Virus genome (UHGV): UHGV-0179803
Reading direction: 5' to 3' (one strand)
From: a virus
Length of the DNA stretch: 64,000 nucleotides
The notes beneath the pieces were generated by a model, which did no database searches, was not told the DNA's origin, and was given only the letters and a program-made list of their open reading frames with translations. The position numbers and the translations under genes were made by a program. Below, piece after piece: positions 24,739 through 55,786 of the stretch (within the stretch, counting starts at the first letter, position 1; the number at the start of each line of letters is the position of its first letter).

Positions 24739-25107
24739 ATGGCTGCATTAGGTAAGAAACGCCGTGGTAATTTCCTGGTGGTCTTGACAGACCATCCAGA
24801 GGAAGAGTATCATTGCAGATCAACACGGGTTATCCCAGTCCAGGATCGTGAAGGTGATGAAATCTGGGATGAATTAATGTTGACTTGTTCTGACAGTGAA
24901 TATTTCTTCATCTACGTTAAAGACAAAGCAGGTTTCTTTGAAAATGATGATCTGCTGCGTTATGATATTGCAGATATGGTAAGAGCTTGCCACAAAGACA
25001 GTGCTGAACTCTTCGGTCTGCAACTTAAGGATAAAACTTTCTTCTATCAGGACGAATGCGTGGAGATTTACAGGGAAGTGGAAGATGAATTACTCCACGA
25101 TAACTGA
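24739..25107 (+). CDS. hypothetical protein
   Basis: 122 aa; AAGGAG upstream. Confidence 0.5.
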   Translation: MAALGKKRRGNFLVVLTDHPEEEYHCRSTRVIPVQDREGDEIWDELMLTCSDSEYFFIYVKDKAGFFENDDLLRYDIADMVRACHKDSAELFGLQLKDKTFFYQDECVEIYREVEDELLHDN

Positions 25108-28408: not shown

Positions 28409-29797
28409 GTGGGAGAACATACTTATGAGATTGGCACGGATGCCGCTCTCGCCGCTGTGTTATGTGGTGAAAACGTCTATATCAGCGGACCTGGCGGGAC
28501 CGGGAAGACTCATCTTTTACAAGATATACAGTCTTTACTTGGCGAATCCTGTATGGTTGTTGCCCCAACAGGGGTAGCCGCGCTTAACGCGGGAGGTGTT
28601 ACCGCACACAGAGCTTTTGACCTGTCAGCAGGTGTGACTGTCCCAGAAGACTTCACAGAGATTCGTTCTAAAACAGCAAAACCTCTCAAAAGTAAAGCGC
28701 TACGGACTTTAGTCATTGATGAAGTGTCTATGGTCCGTGCGGATAAGTTTGTGGAGATGGATAAGAAACTCCAGCACCTCCGTAAAACCAGTGAACCTTT
28801 CGGAGGTTTACAGGTGATCATGTTTGGGGATTTCTACCAGGCACAACCTGTTATCTCTACGCAAGAAAGGGAGGACTACTACAAATATTGGGATACTGAC
28901 CTTTGTTTCTATACCCAATCGTGGAAAGATCTTAATCTGAAATGTGTTGCCCTTGTGGAGCAATTCAGGCAAGAGTCAATCCGGTTTGCCACAATGCTGA
29001 ACTGCGTTCGTGAAGGTAGGAGAACAGGCGATGTGGTTAAAGAATTAAACTCTCGTTGTTACCACGGGGGGCAGGCCTCTGATGCTATCATCCTTTGCTC
29101 AACCAACAAAAGAGTGGAGGAGATAAACAGAGAGTTCTATGACCGTATTGATGGTGAGGAGAGGATGTATAAAGGGACGCTGAAAGGTAAATTCCCTCCC
29201 AATCAGCTACCTGTGGAAGATTTGATGTGCCTTAAAGTGGGAATGAAAGTCATGATTGTTGCCAACGACCTTAATCCTAATCACAAAGTTCCTTGTTATG
29301 TTAACGGTTCTCGTGGCACAATATTAAAATTCTATGATGATAAGGTTGACATTGAACTAGATAATGGTACACTTGTGACTGTACCTAAAAAGCTATGGGA
29401 AAGCTACGAATACAAACCGTCCCTGAAAATGGATTGGAAGGCTCGTAAACAGAAAAGAGTGATTGAGAGAATAACCACAGGGTCATTTGAACAGTTGCCT
29501 TTGAAGTCTGGATACGCGTACACAATTCACAAAAGCCAGGGTCTTACGTTAGATGCCTATAACTTGGATCTTGGTAAGAGAGGCGCATTCGCAGCGGGAA
29601 TGACTTATGTTGCTCTTAGTCGTGCTAAGAAAATTCAGAGCATTACCCTCTTGCGTCCTGTCAGAGAAAGTGATATTATTGTAGACCCAAGAGTGGTACA
29701 GTTTTACGCTGATACGTTCCCGGGGTTGGATGAAAAAGTAAGAAAAGATCTTGAAGTCAAAGTTAAAAAGGAGGCCGAGAATGAGTCTACTGGCTAA
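28409..29797 (+). CDS. SF1 DNA helicase, Dda/RecD/Pif1-like
   Basis: 462 aa; GTG start after AAGGAGG; Walker A GPGGTGKTH; VIDEVSMV; FGDFYQAQPV; C-terminal YAYTIHKSQGLT and ALSRA motifs. Confidence 0.8.
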   Translation: MGEHTYEIGTDAALAAVLCGENVYISGPGGTGKTHLLQDIQSLLGESCMVVAPTGVAALNAGGVTAHRAFDLSAGVTVPEDFTEIRSKTAKPLKSKALRTLVIDEVSMVRADKFVEMDKKLQHLRKTSEPFGGLQVIMFGDFYQAQPVISTQEREDYYKYWDTDLCFYTQSWKDLNLKCVALVEQFRQESIRFATMLNCVREGRRTGDVVKELNSRCYHGGQASDAIILCSTNKRVEEINREFYDRIDGEERMYKGTLKGKFPPNQLPVEDLMCLKVGMKVMIVANDLNPNHKVPCYVNGSRGTILKFYDDKVDIELDNGTLVTVPKKLWESYEYKPSLKMDWKARKQKRVIERITTGSFEQLPLKSGYAYTIHKSQGLTLDAYNLDLGKRGAFAAGMTYVALSRAKKIQSITLLRPVRESDIIVDPRVVQFYADTFPGLDEKVRKDLEVKVKKEAENESTG

Positions 29798-30104
29798 TGT
29801 GGTTAATTATGTCGCCGATATTGATACATCTGAACCACAAGATGTAACAGTGCACGACTTTACACAACGTCATAAAAATCATGATCTTTTGTTGGTGGCA
29901 GACAGTGAGGATTATGATGTTTACCATGCTTTTGTGTTCTCTGATACTGTTTTTGAAGTAGGTCAATTCCTGACTGTTAACTTCGGAGAAGATACAGGTG
30001 TGGAAGATATTGTAACTTTCATTATCGAAGGTCTGGATTGTGTTGACGAAGACGGTACTGCGTTTGAATTGATTCTTCGTGTTGTAGAAGAGCTTGACAT
30101 ATAA
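29781..30104 (+). CDS. small acidic protein
   Basis: 107 aa from ATG after AGGAGG; strongly acidic. Confidence 0.45.
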   Translation: MSLLANVVNYVADIDTSEPQDVTVHDFTQRHKNHDLLLVADSEDYDVYHAFVFSDTVFEVGQFLTVNFGEDTGVEDIVTFIIEGLDCVDEDGTAFELILRVVEELDI

Positions 30105-38805: not shown

Positions 38806-39057
38806 ATGACAGAACGTGAAGTAATCCCAGTAGTATGTGTTTACGCAGCAGGTGAAGATGACGGTTATCCACACCTGGAAGGTTTATTTGTTGAAGGCCA
38901 TGAGTACGTACTCGTCCGGTCAGAGGAAGAAGACGAAGAAGGGATCTACCTGGTTAAAGACGAAAGAGTACCGTTTGAATGGTCAGCAATAGAACAGGAA
39001 GATGGTGTGTGGACTGTCGAAGGTCTGGAGCTGATTGCAGAATTCGAAGAACTTTAA
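38806..39057 (+). CDS. small acidic protein
   Basis: 83 aa; ends ...LELIAEFEEL; similar to next ORF. Confidence 0.45.
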   Translation: MTEREVIPVVCVYAAGEDDGYPHLEGLFVEGHEYVLVRSEEEDEEGIYLVKDERVPFEWSAIEQEDGVWTVEGLELIAEFEEL

Positions 39058-39068
39058 GGGGCACCACA

Positions 39069-39290
39069 ATGGAAGACTGTATCTTAGTAAAAGCTAAATT
39101 CGTCAATCCTAGAGCATTTTGGTTTACAGAAGGTGGTACTTACGTACTCCAGAAGTCTCCTCAAATAGCTGGCAATTTAATAGTCATTGACGACGATGGT
39201 GAATCATGGTTCACAACTCCACAGTTTGACGGTACGTGGGAAGTAGTGGGCACTTACACTCACGCTGTATTCGAGGAGATAGAGGAATGA
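39069..39290 (+). CDS. small acidic protein (paralog of upstream ORF)
   Basis: 73 aa from ATG (MEDCILVKAK); ends ...HAVFEEIEE. Confidence 0.4.
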   Translation: MEDCILVKAKFVNPRAFWFTEGGTYVLQKSPQIAGNLIVIDDDGESWFTTPQFDGTWEVVGTYTHAVFEEIEE

Positions 39291-47258: not shown

Positions 47259-47453
47259 ATGGGTGATTTACAGAAAATCTTATTTACTGTCCTGCTCCTT
47301 GTCGGTATGTTTGCGGCAGTAGGCTTTGTGGCTATTAGTGCTGCACACTACGCAGACTTTCCTGCATGGGTACGTGCTTCGTATTCAGCTATTATGTTGG
47401 GGGGTTTGTGCGGTTTCTTAAAATATATAGGACGTGAGGTGCCTGAAAAATGA
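47259..47453 (+). CDS. small membrane protein
   Basis: 64 aa; two hydrophobic helices; AGGAGG upstream. Confidence 0.5.
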   Translation: MGDLQKILFTVLLLVGMFAAVGFVAISAAHYADFPAWVRASYSAIMLGGLCGFLKYIGREVPEK

Positions 47454-47878
47454 TCTACCCTGTACCTAAACTAATTCCGGTATATGACAACGATTCTCGC
47501 TTTCAGGTAATGATTGCAGGTATCCTTGTCACTGGTAAAATCGATAGCTATGTGTTCAATGGTGAACGTTTTAAAGAATACTCTATTGAATGGGATGGCT
47601 ATGACTATAACGTCTACTTCGATGAAAACGGGGAGATGTACTTCGAAGAAGTAGAAATGTTGTTAGGTGTTGCAGGTATCATCAAACCTAAGGATGTAGA
47701 ATTTGCTGAAGGGGAATGCGATGACTGCGGTGACTATTGCGTCTGCGATATCCACTTACCTTCAGGGGAAACTATCTATTTTGAAACGCATTTCGGTGAA
47801 ACGAACTTCCCTAATGATTGGGAAGAGTTTTTCGAGATTGTGGAAAAAGAAAGGGAAGTGTTAAGAAGCCGTCGATAA
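47450..47878 (+). CDS. hypothetical protein
   Basis: 142 aa; ATGA overlap; Cys cluster CDDCGDYCVC. Confidence 0.5.
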   Translation: MIYPVPKLIPVYDNDSRFQVMIAGILVTGKIDSYVFNGERFKEYSIEWDGYDYNVYFDENGEMYFEEVEMLLGVAGIIKPKDVEFAEGECDDCGDYCVCDIHLPSGETIYFETHFGETNFPNDWEEFFEIVEKEREVLRSRR

Positions 47879-51301: not shown

Positions 51302-51703
51302 ATGAGCGCTTTTAACACTGATTTCGATTTCTCTGGTCTGGAAGAAGTTCGCGATCTTCGTAACTGCCGCCGCGAAAACGGTTTTTATAAATCTCTGGAC
51401 CTGGTGGCACTGGACCACAAAATGGACCTGGAAGAAGTAGCAACGATTCGTTTCTACCAGTCACCGCGCGGTAACACTGTTTACTGTGTAGTATGGGTAC
51501 ATGAAGCAGGGCACGAATTTTATGCCACTGCTGGCGGGAAAGCTGGTGGCTATGGTTACGATAAAGAGGAGGCCGCATTACGGGAAGCTATCGAGGCGAT
51601 GGGTGTAAAAGCTGGCGATTATGCTCACCCTGAAAAATTTTTAATCCAGCTTGCTCGCTACTTCGGATATGAAAAAGCTAAAGTGATTGAAGCACACGCA
51701 TAA
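51302..51703 (+). CDS. hypothetical protein
   Basis: 133 aa; AAGGAG upstream. Confidence 0.55.
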   Translation: MSAFNTDFDFSGLEEVRDLRNCRRENGFYKSLDLVALDHKMDLEEVATIRFYQSPRGNTVYCVVWVHEAGHEFYATAGGKAGGYGYDKEEAALREAIEAMGVKAGDYAHPEKFLIQLARYFGYEKAKVIEAHA

Positions 51704-51744
51704 GCTGCCTTTTAGATGGCCCCCTGGTGGGGCCATTGATAAAG
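51704..51744 (+). repeat. conserved intergenic hairpin element, copy a
   Basis: GCTGCCTTTTAGATGGCCCCCTGGTGGGGCCATTGATAAAG directly after a stop codon. Confidence 0.5.
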
Positions 51745-51780
51745 GTAACTTGGGGCAACAATAACCGAGAGAAAGAAAAT

Positions 51781-52215
51781 ATGAAACGTTTACCACGCTG
51801 GATCCGCTTTATTAATAAACTTGCCGCAGATGAAAAAATCCAGGCTATGCATAAAGATAACCGCGAACGCCGTGCTGCCTTACGAGATTATCGCCGCATG
51901 TTGGCAAAGTTAGCCAATAAAAATGGCGTTCTTAAACCGTTCCGCAAAGTGATCCACCTGGTCGCTATGGGAGCGCCTAAGGTGGCAAACGTTCCAAACG
52001 TCCATAAGATTGATGACCGCGACGTTGTAAGAGATATTGATAAAGATTTTTCTCCGAAGGCCATCAATCAGCGGATCAACAGCTGCAAAAATAAGAAAGA
52101 TCTTGATAATTTGTTAGATAGCCTCGACGCTTTAGGGTGTGATTATGATTTCTTAGATGACAAGATTAATAAAAAATACCGCGAATTGGCTGGTTATCGC
52201 GTCAACCGGATTTAA
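51781..52215 (+). CDS. hypothetical basic protein
   Basis: 144 aa from ATG (MKRLPRW) after GAGAGAAAG. Confidence 0.5.
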   Translation: MKRLPRWIRFINKLAADEKIQAMHKDNRERRAALRDYRRMLAKLANKNGVLKPFRKVIHLVAMGAPKVANVPNVHKIDDRDVVRDIDKDFSPKAINQRINSCKNKKDLDNLLDSLDALGCDYDFLDDKINKKYRELAGYRVNRI

Positions 52216-52428: not shown

Positions 52429-52456
52429 TTGCAATCCCCCAATGTATGAATACAAT
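52429..52456 (+). promoter_or_regulatory. sigma70-like promoter
   Basis: TTGCAA-16 nt-TACAAT. Confidence 0.5.
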
Positions 52457-52502
52457 AACAATTGAAGGCAGTATTAACAAAAACACAAGAAGGGGAAACA
52501 AA

Positions 52503-52673
52503 ATGGATAAAATCTATTACGTTGTTTATCGCGGCCTTAATGTTGCCTGGTACGACAATTTGGCTGAGGCAATGGAAGAGGCGCACGACCGTTACGACCT
52601 GGGGCGTAACCGCCTTGAAGTGGTGGATAGCGACGGCGTGATCTATTGGTGTAGTGAGGATCTGGAATACTGA
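52503..52673 (+). CDS. micro-gene product (56 aa)
   Basis: ATG (MDKIYYVVY) after AAGGGGAAAC. Confidence 0.45.
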   Translation: MDKIYYVVYRGLNVAWYDNLAEAMEEAHDRYDLGRNRLEVVDSDGVIYWCSEDLEY

Positions 52674-52684
52674 AAAAAAAATAG

Positions 52685-52715
52685 TTGACACGACCGTTTG
52701 AAAGTGTAGTATATA
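52685..52715 (+). promoter_or_regulatory. sigma70 promoter
   Basis: TTGACA then AGTATA/TATATA at 16-19 nt. Confidence 0.6.
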
Positions 52716-52768
52716 AACCGAAGGGGAAAGAAATTTCCCAGAGGTAAAAAACAAAGAGGATAAAAATC

Positions 52769-53044
52769 ATGGCTATCATCGAAAAAGTAAACGTTCCAGC
52801 CACTTATAATAAAGGTTATAACGGTTGGAAAAATTACAATCAGTGGAACGTTGCACTGTGGATCAATAACGACGAAAGTTTATACTTCTTTGCCCTGGGC
52901 TTGATTAATGAGTGTGGCAATAAAGACGCGGCAGCTGATTTGATGGTTTACCGCTTGAAAGAAGAGGGGATCACTCATACGCCTGATGGGGTGCCTTACA
53001 ATAAAACTAACATCCGCGCCGCTATGGTCGGAATGCCGCACTGA
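52769..53044 (+). CDS. hypothetical protein
   Basis: 91 aa; AAGAGGA upstream. Confidence 0.55.
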   Translation: MAIIEKVNVPATYNKGYNGWKNYNQWNVALWINNDESLYFFALGLINECGNKDAAADLMVYRLKEEGITHTPDGVPYNKTNIRAAMVGMPH

Positions 53045-53120
53045 TAGCCGCCTTACCCTGGGGCCGTGGCAGCGCCCCATGAATAAGGTTACTACCCCCA
53101 CAATAACAGGAGGTAACATT

Positions 53121-53231
53121 ATGAACATTATCGCGGCAATCATTGTAGGCTATGCCCTCTTTTTGCTGGGCTTGCACCTGGCGGCAGTTATCAAAGGCCT
53201 GATCGATTTCTTTAAAAAAGATGAAAAATAG
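53121..53231 (+). CDS. small membrane peptide (36 aa)
   Basis: MNIIAAIIVGYALFLLGLHLAAVIKGLIDFFKKDEK; ATG after AGGAGGTAACATT. Confidence 0.4.
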   Translation: MNIIAAIIVGYALFLLGLHLAAVIKGLIDFFKKDEK

Positions 53232-53233
53232 TG

Positions 53234-53261
53234 TTGACAGGTGAGAGAAAATAAATATACT
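53234..53261 (+). promoter_or_regulatory. sigma70 promoter
   Basis: TTGACA-16 nt-TATACT followed by GAAAGCAGTAAAC box. Confidence 0.6.
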
Positions 53262-53311
53262 TAACCATGAAAGCAGTAAACGAGATTAATAAAACACAGG
53301 AGAAAAAGATC

Positions 53312-53722
53312 ATGAAAACTACTTTCCGTAATGCAAATGGTTTAACTGCATTCGCTTTAGCTTGTGGATATGTTCAAATGGTAGAGGGGCGGGATCGTGA
53401 AATGGTGGATCTGTTTAAAGCCCACGGTTGCTACCATGTTCGCGCTTTTAATGCTGATGGCGAGCGGCAAGCATGGTTTAGTGTGCCATCTTTAACTGAT
53501 GCCCGTCGCCATTGGAAAGAACTGGTAAAACTGATTTTCGGTGCACGCATTGCACAAGTGAAACGCTGCAAACGTTACGAAGTGCGCCACGTCCTGGACC
53601 TGAGAGGGGAGGCAGTTTACCAGGTTATCTATCGCTACGATGGGGAGTCTCGCCACGTCGGCTACTGTGAAAACGTGGACGCGGCATGGATGATTGCACA
53701 CCGCGACTATGTAAGCCTATAG
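53312..53722 (+). CDS. hypothetical protein
   Basis: 136 aa from ATG (MKTTFRNANG) after CAGGAGAAAAAG. Confidence 0.55.
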   Translation: MKTTFRNANGLTAFALACGYVQMVEGRDREMVDLFKAHGCYHVRAFNADGERQAWFSVPSLTDARRHWKELVKLIFGARIAQVKRCKRYEVRHVLDLRGEAVYQVIYRYDGESRHVGYCENVDAAWMIAHRDYVSL

Positions 53723-53806
53723 GTTATTTTTCGGTGGCCTGGGTATTGACACCGGGCCATCTATAAAGTAACCTAAAGATCCACACAACGAAGGGGGGGA
53801 ACAATC

Positions 53807-53899
53807 ATGAAAAACTATTCTCACTATTTGATCCGTCGTGATGTTATGATTATGGCCCTGGGCTACCTGGTTATGTTTGCTTTTCGTGTAATGCTGTAA
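53807..53899 (+). CDS. small membrane peptide (30 aa)
   Basis: MKNYSHYLIRRDVMIMALGYLVMFAFRVML; GAAGGGGGGG upstream. Confidence 0.3.
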   Translation: MKNYSHYLIRRDVMIMALGYLVMFAFRVML

Positions 53900-53917
53900 A
53901 ATAAATTAAAAAATTAG

Positions 53918-53946
53918 TTGACACAGTAGCAAAAATAAGTAAACTT
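53918..53946 (+). promoter_or_regulatory. sigma70 promoter
   Basis: TTGACA-17 nt-AAACTT followed by GAAAGAAGTAATTAG box. Confidence 0.5.
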
Positions 53947-53990
53947 AAAACTGAAAGAAGTAATTAGTAAACCACAAAGAGGAAAACATC

Positions 53991-54350
53991 ATGAAACGCA
54001 TCAATAAGGCTATGGCTAACGCAATCCGTGCTTATGTAGTTGACAGCTTAAACTTTGACGACATGGAACACGACAACGACGTTGAGGAACTGAAAGCACG
54101 CTTTGAAGCTGAGCATTTTGACGGCTATTATATCCGTCGCTTTAACGGCAACCGTGTAAAAGCAATGGCCGACTGGTTAGCAGGACTGCCGAGCGGTGTA
54201 GACATTGACTTCTGTAATGATGACATTTTAAACCGCTTGCGTGAGTTCGGAATCATTGACGAAAAAACTAAAGAAGACACTAAAGATCGCTACATTGACG
54301 AATGGTTTGAACTGATGGCGCGGTTTTATGTGGAACTAGCATACAAATAA
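53991..54350 (+). CDS. hypothetical protein
   Basis: 119 aa; AGAGGAAAAC upstream. Confidence 0.55.
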   Translation: MKRINKAMANAIRAYVVDSLNFDDMEHDNDVEELKARFEAEHFDGYYIRRFNGNRVKAMADWLAGLPSGVDIDFCNDDILNRLREFGIIDEKTKEDTKDRYIDEWFELMARFYVELAYK

Positions 54351-54388
54351 AATAGCTTGCTTTTAGATGGCCTCGAAAAAAAAAATAG

Positions 54389-54417
54389 TTGACACGGGGC
54401 CATCGATAAAGTAAACT
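54389..54417 (+). promoter_or_regulatory. sigma70 promoter embedded in conserved hairpin element
   Basis: TTGACA-17 nt-TAAACT; the spacer is the GGGGCCATCGATAAAG arm of the recurrent hairpin element. Confidence 0.55.
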
Positions 54418-54455
54418 AACACACAGTAAGAAGTAACAACAAAGGAGAAAACATT

Positions 54456-54794
54456 ATGAACGCTAACATTGAACTGATTGCACGTCGTGCCGCCCTGGTT
54501 GCAGCTATCGAACAATTGAACAATAAAATTGAAAACTTTGAAATTGATCCAGATGACTACGAAAACGACTACGATGATTTACTAGACGAAGGCGGTGCGG
54601 TAGTGGTAGGCGGTTGCGAATTTCTCCCGTCTAGAATCCTCCGCGAACTGGATCCGATTGCTTATCGTTGCGGCCTGAATGATTATATAGACAACATTGA
54701 TGTAAGCGATGACGCAAACTATTGTGATTTGTGTGACGATCTGGCTGACCTTGAGGCAGAACTAGGGGAAGTCGAGGAAGCGCTACGTAACTAA
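54456..54794 (+). CDS. highly acidic small protein (candidate DNA mimic)
   Basis: 112 aa; about a quarter Asp/Glu, few basic residues; AAAGGAGAAAAC upstream. Confidence 0.55.
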   Translation: MNANIELIARRAALVAAIEQLNNKIENFEIDPDDYENDYDDLLDEGGAVVVGGCEFLPSRILRELDPIAYRCGLNDYIDNIDVSDDANYCDLCDDLADLEAELGEVEEALRN

Positions 54795-54836
54795 GTTGCC
54801 TTTTAGATGGCCTCCCTGGCGGGGCCATCCATAAAG
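54795..54836 (+). repeat. conserved intergenic hairpin element, copy c
   Basis: GTTGCCTTTTAGATGGCCTCCCTGGCGGGGCCATCCATAAAG directly after a stop codon. Confidence 0.5.
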
Positions 54837-54873
54837 ATAATTTAGTGTAACCACAATAAAAAGGAGTTACGCA

Positions 54874-55122
54874 ATGGCAAAATTAATTAACTTTGCAGCG
54901 GTGGACCTGGTAAAAGCTGATTGGTATTATAGCAATGGTCGCGCCGTTTGGTGGCGTGAAGGGGGTGCCGAGGGCAAAGTAAAAGCGCGTATGATTAAAG
55001 GTTACCATTTAGATCGCCCTGTAATTCGTATCAATGGGAAGCTGGTCGCTTTCATGCATATCAAAGCGGTTGACGATATTGAAAAAATTTTGAACGTCAA
55101 CTATTTTAAAATGTTAGGGTGA
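54874..55122 (+). CDS. hypothetical protein
   Basis: 82 aa; AAAAGGAG upstream. Confidence 0.5.
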   Translation: MAKLINFAAVDLVKADWYYSNGRAVWWREGGAEGKVKARMIKGYHLDRPVIRINGKLVAFMHIKAVDDIEKILNVNYFKMLG

Positions 55123-55564: not shown

Positions 55565-55786
55565 ATGAACATGGTAAACTTTGAAAAAATTACTAAGCGC
55601 AATCATTTATCTGACGAACTACCGGAACGCCGCCAGCGTAACAACAAGCTGAATAAACCGCGTCGATTTGGTAAACTGTGGCGCAACTATTACGACCGTA
55701 ATTTACGCCGCCTGTTACTTGAACGTGAACGCCAACAAATGAGATACGCAGCACGGCGGGAACGGATGAAAGCAGACGAAATTTAA
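55565..55786 (+). CDS. highly basic small protein (Arg-rich)
   Basis: 73 aa; Arg/Lys-rich, nucleic-acid-binding-like composition. Confidence 0.5.
   Translation: MNMVNFEKITKRNHLSDELPERRQRNNKLNKPRRFGKLWRNYYDRNLRRLLLERERQQMRYAARRERMKADEI

Follow-up and report, generated by a model that had tools for sequence, protein, structure and literature searches.

The gene at positions 54456..54794 (+ strand) of the 64,000-nucleotide stretch of viral DNA analysed here, hereafter the window, encodes a small, very acidic protein from a large family that is confined to phages within the collections searched. We tentatively read it as an acidic protein that is expressed early, acts on its own and serves as a decoy for, or inhibitor of, a host defence that varies between strains, an explanation that we consider plausible, if somewhat short of probable. 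Under this explanation, host RNA polymerase would transcribe the gene soon after infection from its own sigma70 promoter, and the product is predicted to fold as a small, strongly acidic head bearing an LDPxAYRCGLxDY motif on a coiled-coil stalk. Two heads would act together, probably as a dimer. The protein would be dispensable for the basic lytic cycle and would neutralize a strain-variable host factor, most likely a nucleic-acid-binding anti-phage defence protein. The acidic head may bind this factor stoichiometrically, competing as a decoy or in the manner of a DNA mimic. Among the small genes that phages express early, most are of unknown function and few have been tied to any phenotype, whilst this gene joins a huge unannotated family, a confidently predicted fold with no specific match among solved structures and a reported host-specific fitness need of its ortholog.

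Gene, phage and promoter cassettes

The open reading frame runs from an ATG start to a TAA stop and encodes 112 amino acids. Consistent with the initial annotation, which had described a protein of about one quarter Asp and Glu with few basic residues, the product contains 17 Asp and 13 Glu (30/112, 26.8% acidic), only seven basic residues (6 Arg and 1 Lys) and no His, with a calculated pI of ~4.05 and a charge at pH 7 of ~-23.5. Among the window's 435 mechanically called ORFs of 40 aa or more it ranks second by acidic fraction, and its net charge is the most negative among the 25 most acidic ORFs listed. Comparison with a 94%-identical metagenomic copy gave a dN/dS of 0.05 (28 synonymous and 7 non-synonymous differences), placing the gene under strong purifying selection, and the same 112-aa product was obtained when genes were called independently on the source contig (ENA ERZ1034815 NODE_8, 139,523 bp). 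The gene is therefore real, and a match to PHROG 9294, detailed below, accompanies these lines of evidence for the coding sequence.

No phage record matched the window at the nucleotide level (megablast), the DNA polymerase of the window phage is 74% identical to that of Vequintavirus (rV5-like), and the proteins encoded in 45.8-61.5 kb of the window are collinear with those encoded in 78.9-91.6 kb of Escherichia phage MaxBurger (Bas54). By these comparisons, the window is best placed as an uncultured, roughly genus-level relative of Vequintavirus. The acidic gene sits between the orthologs of bas54_0106 and bas54_0110 in the collinear region, where bas54_0108 is its positional ortholog (52% identity over 98 aa, E = 1.5e-23). 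The Bas54 gene (83882-84232 of that genome) encodes 116 aa with a net charge of -27.

The sequence fits the proposal that the gene has its own promoter within an early array. A sigma70-type promoter (TTGACA-17 nt-TAAACT) was located at 54389..54417 (+ strand; consensus scan, 10/12 matches), and a Shine-Dalgarno sequence, AAGGAG, can be read at 54442..54447 (+ strand), 8 nt before the ATG. Between 50 and 60 kb the window holds 38 promoter-like sites, compared with 20.3 +/- 5.0 in shuffled sequences, and the strong sites in this interval lie mostly on the + strand. TTGACA and TATAAT hexamers are likewise present directly upstream of the ortholog bas54_0108.

The promoter is embedded in a hairpin-plus-promoter cassette (54353..54418, + strand; RNA fold -24.4 kcal/mol, z = -6.8 against shuffles), which has an inner stem of GATGGCCTC / GGGGCCATC and an outer stem of CTTTT / AAAG, the loop containing the -35 hexamer and the 3' arm the -10 hexamer. 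The same element is repeated in the window at ~51715, 53754 and 54822, and is also found upstream of bas54_0107 in phage Bas54. Downstream, a hairpin cassette of the form GATGGCCTCC...GGGGCCATC (54790..54846, + strand; RNA fold -25.2 kcal/mol, z = -4.2; identified also in the repeat listing) ends the gene unit, with the next gene at 54874. The gene is thus flanked by two copies of the repeated hairpin TTTTAGATGGCC...GGCCATCxATAAAG. Promoter-early stem-loop (PeSL) cassettes have been described for T4-type phages. The arrangement resembles them in that repeated elements combining a hairpin with a sigma70 promoter, which are present in Bas54 too, stand on either side of the gene, and in that local gene content differs from Bas54 through inserted genes, the window having four additional small genes (52446-54350) just upstream of the acidic gene. 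The element sequence, however, is specific to this phage group. By analogy, we infer that the hairpin elements may have a role in gene shuffling.

The genes immediately adjacent in the window all fall into PHROGs without a known function. No recurrent neighbouring gene family was detected across 71 IMG/VR loci, suggesting that the gene acts as a single-gene module; a pentapeptide-repeat neighbour was present in only 2 loci. Of 49 contigs that were at least 30 kb long, 14 carried the gene within 5% of one end, where 4.9 would be expected (p = 2e-4). In the Autographiviridae phage PS3, an annotated host-type promoter precedes the family member, which comes second in gene order from the left end. 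Both the near-end position and the PS3 host promoter fit an early, first-expressed accessory gene. The early genes of PS3 gave no match to Ocr or SAM-hydrolase models.

Protein family, acidic head and predicted fold

The window protein matched PHROG 9294 ('unknown function') with E = 2.9e-28, residues 16-109 aligning to profile positions 25-118 of 127, and the family HMM scored the window ORF at 6e-42 and bas54_0108 at 1e-44. Motif and architecture are the same in the window protein, bas54_0108 and the PHROG 9294 family, although the window protein is ~50% diverged from bas54_0108 and the other Vequintavirus orthologs. A tblastn search recovered 132 phage records, mostly Vequintavirus, with ~59% identity over residues 21-83, in which every annotation was either 'hypothetical' or a spurious name. 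When 1.84 billion cluster representatives were searched by profile, the family grew to 3179 proteins at E<=1e-3, each representing a cluster at 50% identity, and 917 of these were retained at E<=1e-10. A second search, of 5.8 billion proteins, returned 1163 members at E<=1e-5, whose records contained neither informative names nor precomputed Pfam domains. Family members were found in phages of Escherichia, Vibrio, Providencia, Proteus, Stenotrophomonas, Pseudoalteromonas, Clavibacter, Microbacterium and Gordonia. The family was absent from true plasmids, the lone 'plasmid' match being a 137.6-kb record, as large as these phage genomes.

Existing resources offered little annotation for this family. 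No Pfam family was assigned to the window protein (hmmscan at E<=10), a head-only Pfam scan was negative, and NCBIfam gave no match for the window protein, whilst some relatives matched it through coiled-coil noise alone. Searches of PDB sequences with the full and head-only profiles were negative beyond coiled-coil noise. Fusion partners found in some members (Kyano_Gp96, DUF7222 and long N-terminal extensions) were considered as functional clues and provided none. Full-text literature searches under the motif or the locus tags yielded no characterization and surfaced only the HIDEN-SEQ preprint, as did a search for a Vequintavirus antirestriction factor.

Three segments were distinguished within the protein. 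An N-terminal amphipathic helix (residues 3-26; 54462..54533, + strand) was delimited from AlphaFold secondary structure and per-column family conservation, with hydrophobic positions 7, 11, 14, 18, 21, 25 and 28 forming a heptad pattern family-wide. The conserved acidic head (residues 29-86; 54540..54713, + strand), defined by alignment A1, family-wide conservation and head-only homologs, comprises a helix (32-46), a beta-hairpin (49-56) and two further helices (58-65 and 67-79). A C-terminal acidic helix (residues 87-111; 54714..54788, + strand) has its own heptad pattern, with hydrophobic positions 89, 92, 96, 99, 103, 106 and 110. Net charge is 0 in the N-terminal helix, -15 in the head and -8 in residues 87-112, and the two terminal helices may pack antiparallel as a coiled-coil stalk.

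The head motif LDPIAYRCGLNDY occupies residues 65-77 and has the family form L-D-P-x-A-Y-R-C-G-L-x-D-Y. In alignment A1, D44, D66, P67, A69, Y70, R71, C72, G73 and D76 are invariant. Family-wide, the motif residues among these (D66, P67, A69, Y70, R71, C72, G73 and D76) are conserved at 72-98%, reaching ~90% or more for D66, A69, Y70 and G73 and 72-79% for R71 and C72, within a central segment of consensus FExDPDDYxxxYDxxLDExGxVxIGGxxYxPSxxLKExDPIAYRCGLNDYVD. A zinc site built from the four cysteines was considered and judged unlikely, since C72 is the sole conserved one, the others (C54, C90 and C93) being lineage-specific; a weak Zn_ribbon_IFT122 match was noise.

Several family members consist of the head only, including Stuart_2 of the Providencia phage PS3 (67 aa) and an 83-aa protein of Stenotrophomonas phage Jojan60, whilst P0115 and P0153 contain two tandem heads without a stalk, and others carry extra N- or C-terminal extensions. 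These natural head-only and tandem-head variants show the head to be the apparent essential unit of the family, and the tandem-head variants suggest that the stalked form would work as a dimer presenting two heads. Acidity is retained along with the head. In 156 small members, most of which share <50% identity with each other, acidic residues average 30% of the sequence and net charge averages -27 (sd 5.7), with one member alone above -10. The conserved acidic columns cover residues 29-45 and 76-85, plus the exposed face of the C-terminal helix. Acidity is thus a selected trait, net negative charge being kept while the sequence drifts.

The AlphaFold model was confident (pLDDT 94.3, pTM 0.75) and gave no specific match to any solved structure, nor to any known DNA mimic. 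The weak Foldseek matches included prefoldin beta subunits (TM 0.42-0.47, probability 0.2-0.33), which the topology of the protein also recalls, with a small beta-hairpin unit between long helices at the two termini, and sequence matches were dominated by coiled-coil noise. The protein could on these grounds be a phage-internal helper, for example a chaperone or scaffold resembling prefoldin, or a protein that regulates another phage protein, whose acidity is a by-product of the coiled coil. We consider this very unlikely, however, as the prefoldin matches were not significant (E > 1), no conserved phage partner gene lies alongside, head-only homologs occur without any coiled coil, and a host-specific need, described below for the ortholog, would be hard to explain.

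Known DNA mimics and type I restriction

The initial annotation had likened the protein to the DNA mimics Ocr and ArdA, and that comparison holds for Ocr-like size and charge but not for family membership. T7 gp0.3 Ocr, an inhibitor of type I R-M and BREX systems, has 117 aa with 34 acidic (29.1%) and 6 basic residues and a net charge of -28 (NC_001604), which compares closely with the 112 aa, 30 acidic and 7 basic residues of the window protein. Ocr further resembles it in having a host-type promoter, in forming a single-gene module and in being dispensable in permissive hosts. No Ocr profile (PF08684) was matched in the Pfam hmmscan at E<=10, and hhalign of alignment A2 against T7 Ocr returned a probability of 0.4% over 11 columns. 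Ocr was not among the best fold matches, though solved Ocr structures are present in the PDB. For ArdA (PF07275), there was no Pfam match and no PDB sequence match, and it too was missing from the best fold matches. Membership of either the Ocr or the ArdA family is therefore rejected.

Resemblance to ArdA, an antirestriction protein of plasmids and transposons, is confined to general features, ArdA being a very acidic, elongated, stand-alone antagonist expressed first on entry, as the window protein may be. ArdA differs in being plasmid-borne, as opposed to the family described here, and no match to its three-domain fold was obtained. The RecBCD blockers T7 gp5.9 and lambda Gam are also small, acidic, helical proteins, and as dimers with charged helices they offer a plausible analogy for the acidic stalk. 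They differ in that no sequence or specific fold match links them to the window protein, and in that the window family conserves a globular head, with the helices optional.

As DNA mimics have no common fold, the lack of homology to Ocr or ArdA does not decide the mode of action, and DNA mimicry by the acidic protein is a reasonable but putative mode. Glu-rich coiled-coil proteins are common and are usually not mimics. Furthermore, a motif with conserved Arg, Cys and Gly is not required by pure charge mimicry.

Published plating data for Vequintavirus relatives bear on a more specific possibility, namely that the protein is an Ocr-like mimic directed against type I R-M, and possibly BREX, an acidic dimer filling the DNA groove of the methyltransferase core and so blocking restriction of the incoming genome. 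Vequintavirinae were called 'exceptionally susceptible' to R-M systems in the BASEL paper (PMC8594841). In the raw data of that collection, Bas53-56, which carry 11-15 EcoKI and 4-6 EcoCFT_I sites, plate with EOP values of 0.1-0.75 on EcoKI and 0.23-4.7 on EcoCFT_I, thereby largely escaping both systems despite their sites, as an Ocr-type phenotype would entail. Type II and type III systems, in contrast, hit these phages ~1000-fold or more, or completely, with EOP of ~5e-4 on EcoRI, essentially no plaques on EcoRV and EcoCFT_II, and ~1e-3 to 1e-2 on EcoP1 for Bas53-55, the exception being Bas56 on EcoP1 (0.19-0.5). A siphovirus with 3 EcoKI sites was restricted to an EOP of ~1e-4.

This escape is shared by a phage that does not carry the gene. 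Bas61 (EmilieFrey), with 12 EcoKI and 7 EcoCFT_I sites, plates at EOP 0.1-0.36 and ~1, respectively, and a six-frame HMM scan of its whole genome detected no family member, the best match (E = 0.003) being a 54-aa ORF antisense to an annotated gene. Since Bas61 resists EcoKI equally well without the gene, type I resistance does not track it. BW25113, the HIDEN-SEQ reference host, is hsdR-deficient, a host in which the phage could do without an anti-type-I gene, just as it does without bas54_0108. This agreement, the early promoter and a size and charge nearly those of Ocr are all in keeping with a type I target. We nevertheless regard such a target as quite unlikely, given the EcoKI plating of Bas61, the missing profile and fold evidence for Ocr or ArdA, the absence of the family from true plasmids, which commonly carry type I antirestriction genes, and the neutrality of bas54_0108 in the clinical strain CFE311.

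Reported host-specific need of the ortholog

The HIDEN-SEQ preprint, in which transposon insertions were mapped in Bas54, provides phenotypic information on the ortholog (bioRxiv 10.1101/2025.11.20.689424). In K-12, bas54_0108 was classified as 'Non-essential', with 18/19 TA sites disrupted, and in the clinical strain CFE311 it was unaffected (log2FC -0.52, p = 0.58), whilst one sentence of the Methods reports its 'clear depletion' in the clinical strain CFE303, a uropathogenic E. coli. A passage of the same preprint gives insertions at the 3' end of the gene as abundant, which agrees with the head, rather than the C-terminal helix, as the core unit. In the supplement, the sheet labelled CFE303 repeats the CFE311 run. 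The preprint pairs bas54_0108 with no defence system and gives no knockout of it. Dispensability in K-12 combined with a need in one isolate is the signature expected of a counter-defence gene, and suggests a counter-defence role for this member of the acidic gene family.

Druantia III, the only CFE303 system cloned by the preprint authors (bioRxiv 10.1101/2025.11.20.689424), was considered as the target and set aside. The generic DNA mimics Ocr and Gam fail to inhibit it, and its sole link to the gene is its presence in CFE303.

The CFE303-specific need could also reflect something besides immunity. The protein might serve general host takeover, binding some conserved and basic protein of the host (for example RNA polymerase, RecBCD or a nucleoid-associated protein) and redirecting resources, its importance varying with host physiology. 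T7 gp5.5, T7 gp5.9 and lambda Gam are precedents for acidic early proteins with nucleoid proteins or RecBCD as their partners, and the gene lies among early small genes of unknown function. Spread across phages of both Proteobacteria and Actinobacteria (the latter including those of Clavibacter, Microbacterium and Gordonia) would fit a widely conserved target, and the strongly conserved motif would suit a single conserved partner. Dispensability in K-12 and neutrality in CFE311 would, however, be unexpected if the target were universal and consequential, and the patchy distribution among close relatives, with none in Bas61, is typical of arms-race accessory genes. We therefore consider general takeover unlikely, and retain inhibition of a strain-variable defence as the preferred explanation.

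A broader proposition, which we regard as possible though doubtful, is that the protein is a founding member of a very widespread and previously unrecognized counter-defence class, built from an acidic 'DPxAYRCG' head with an optional acidic coiled-coil stalk, that disables a CFE303 defence system, or a component shared by several, untargeted by known anti-defence proteins. Small acidic phage antagonists are already known; what is new here is the family and a fold without a solved match. If the proposition is true, a family of >3000 clusters spanning phages of Gram-negative and Gram-positive hosts would be among the commonest anti-defence families. Bas54 on CFE303 combines a cultured, genetically tractable phage with an available clinical strain, making the question directly testable. 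Identification of the target would allow thousands of phage genes to be annotated at once, and could add an inhibitor for phage therapy against defence-rich E. coli.

Additional small acidic proteins had been proposed elsewhere in the window, and these fared unevenly. Nothing markedly acidic starts at 39069 among the 25 most acidic ORFs, and for the protein placed near 29781 the mechanical listing gives an ORF at 29751..30104 that is 21% acidic. The ORF at 38806..39057 was confirmed as an acidic protein of 83 aa, 30% of which are acidic residues.

Gene order and repeated hairpins in the early region

Around the acidic 112-aa early protein (54456-54794, + strand), the window is collinear with the genome of Bas54 (BASEL phage MaxBurger, a Vequintavirus), in which bas54_0108 is the positional ortholog. 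Two orthologous positions upstream lies the 162-aa ORF at 51727-52215 (+ strand), orthologous to bas54_0106 (33% identity, E = 2e-13). In the data of the HIDEN-SEQ transposon-sequencing preprint (bioRxiv 10.1101/2025.11.20.689424), bas54_0106 shows significant depletion in the clinical E. coli strain CFE311 (log2FC -3.18, adjusted p displayed as 0). On account of this depletion, we consider the 162-aa product a second counter-defence candidate. Inserted between its gene and the bas54_0108 ortholog are four small + strand genes (52446-54350) that lack a counterpart in the collinear Bas54 region, with products of 75, 91, 151 and 119 aa assigned to PHROGs 20874, 871, 16510 and 11100, respectively, all four of unknown function. 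Downstream, a homolog of bas54_0111 (55565-55786, + strand, 73 aa, 78% identity) gave a weak precomputed match to Pfam PF08200 (phage T7 gene 1.1), a further sign that the surrounding block comprises early genes.

The small early genes are flanked by an intergenic hairpin repeat, TTTTAGATGGCC...GGCCATCxATAAAG(T)AA, with copies at 51700-51750, 53730-53775, 54353-54418 and 54790-54846 (fold z-scores of -3.3 to -6.8). Some copies contain sigma70 hexamers, with the -35 in the loop and the -10 in the 3' arm, and the element is kept in Bas54 (9610-9650 of the region designated L008). The repeat has the appearance of a mobile PeSL-type (promoter-early stem-loop) promoter/terminator cassette, presumably akin to those of T4-type phages.

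Transposon insertions in bas54_0108

The sheet titled 'resampling_K-12_vs_CFE303' holds, by its console line and values, the CFE311 run (B54_2_311), and the inspected values of the resampling table that follows are identical to it (bioRxiv 10.1101/2025.11.20.689424, Extended Data Table 8, S6/S7); the Bas54 statistics for CFE303, including those for bas54_0108, are therefore absent from the copy of the supplement analysed here. In the K-12 control, bas54_0108 averaged 3479 transposon reads per TA site, compared with about 200-800 for its neighbours (HIDEN-SEQ Extended Data Table 8). This several-fold excess over neighbouring genes could stem from an insertion hotspot; alternatively, since the transposon bears a selectable anti-CRISPR gene, selection could have favoured insertions that lie behind a strong early promoter.

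Type I restriction in cultured relatives

EcoKI sites number 11-15 per genome in the Vequintaviruses Bas53-56 and the phi92-like Bas60 and Bas61 (PMC8594841, S1 Data, S5 Table). Bas53-56 and the phi92-like Bas60-62 nevertheless reached plating efficiencies of 0.1-0.75 against EcoKI and of about 1 against EcoCFT_I, whilst type II and III systems restricted these phages about 1000-fold or more, or completely, except for EcoCFT_II on Bas60-62 and EcoP1 on Bas56 (PMC8594841). Both groups seem to evade type I restriction by some means, in contrast to their summary as exceptionally R-M sensitive (PMC8594841).

Neighbours of family members and other acidic proteins

Downstream of the family member (PHROG 9294), two of the 71 IMG/VR loci encode a pentapeptide-repeat protein (L046 2569-3282 and L076 5978-6214; Pfam PF00805, E = 9e-43, plus DUF5758). 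The DNA mimics MfpA and Qnr share this fold, and at two loci the association is anecdotal.

The most acidic ORF of the window lies at 38806-39057 (+ strand, 83 aa, 30% Asp+Glu, net charge -21), confirming the acidic small protein that the initial annotation had placed there; a search for a PHROG match to it returned none. Another, proposed to start at 39069, was not recovered among the 25 most acidic ORFs. Also markedly acidic are the small ORFs at 47450-47878 (142 aa, net charge -20), which has a homolog in Bas54, at 29751-30104 and at 24739-25107. Elsewhere in the window, the genes for tRNA-Met(CAT), tRNA-Thr(TGT) and tRNA-Arg(CCT) form a minus-strand cluster of three (14557-14800).
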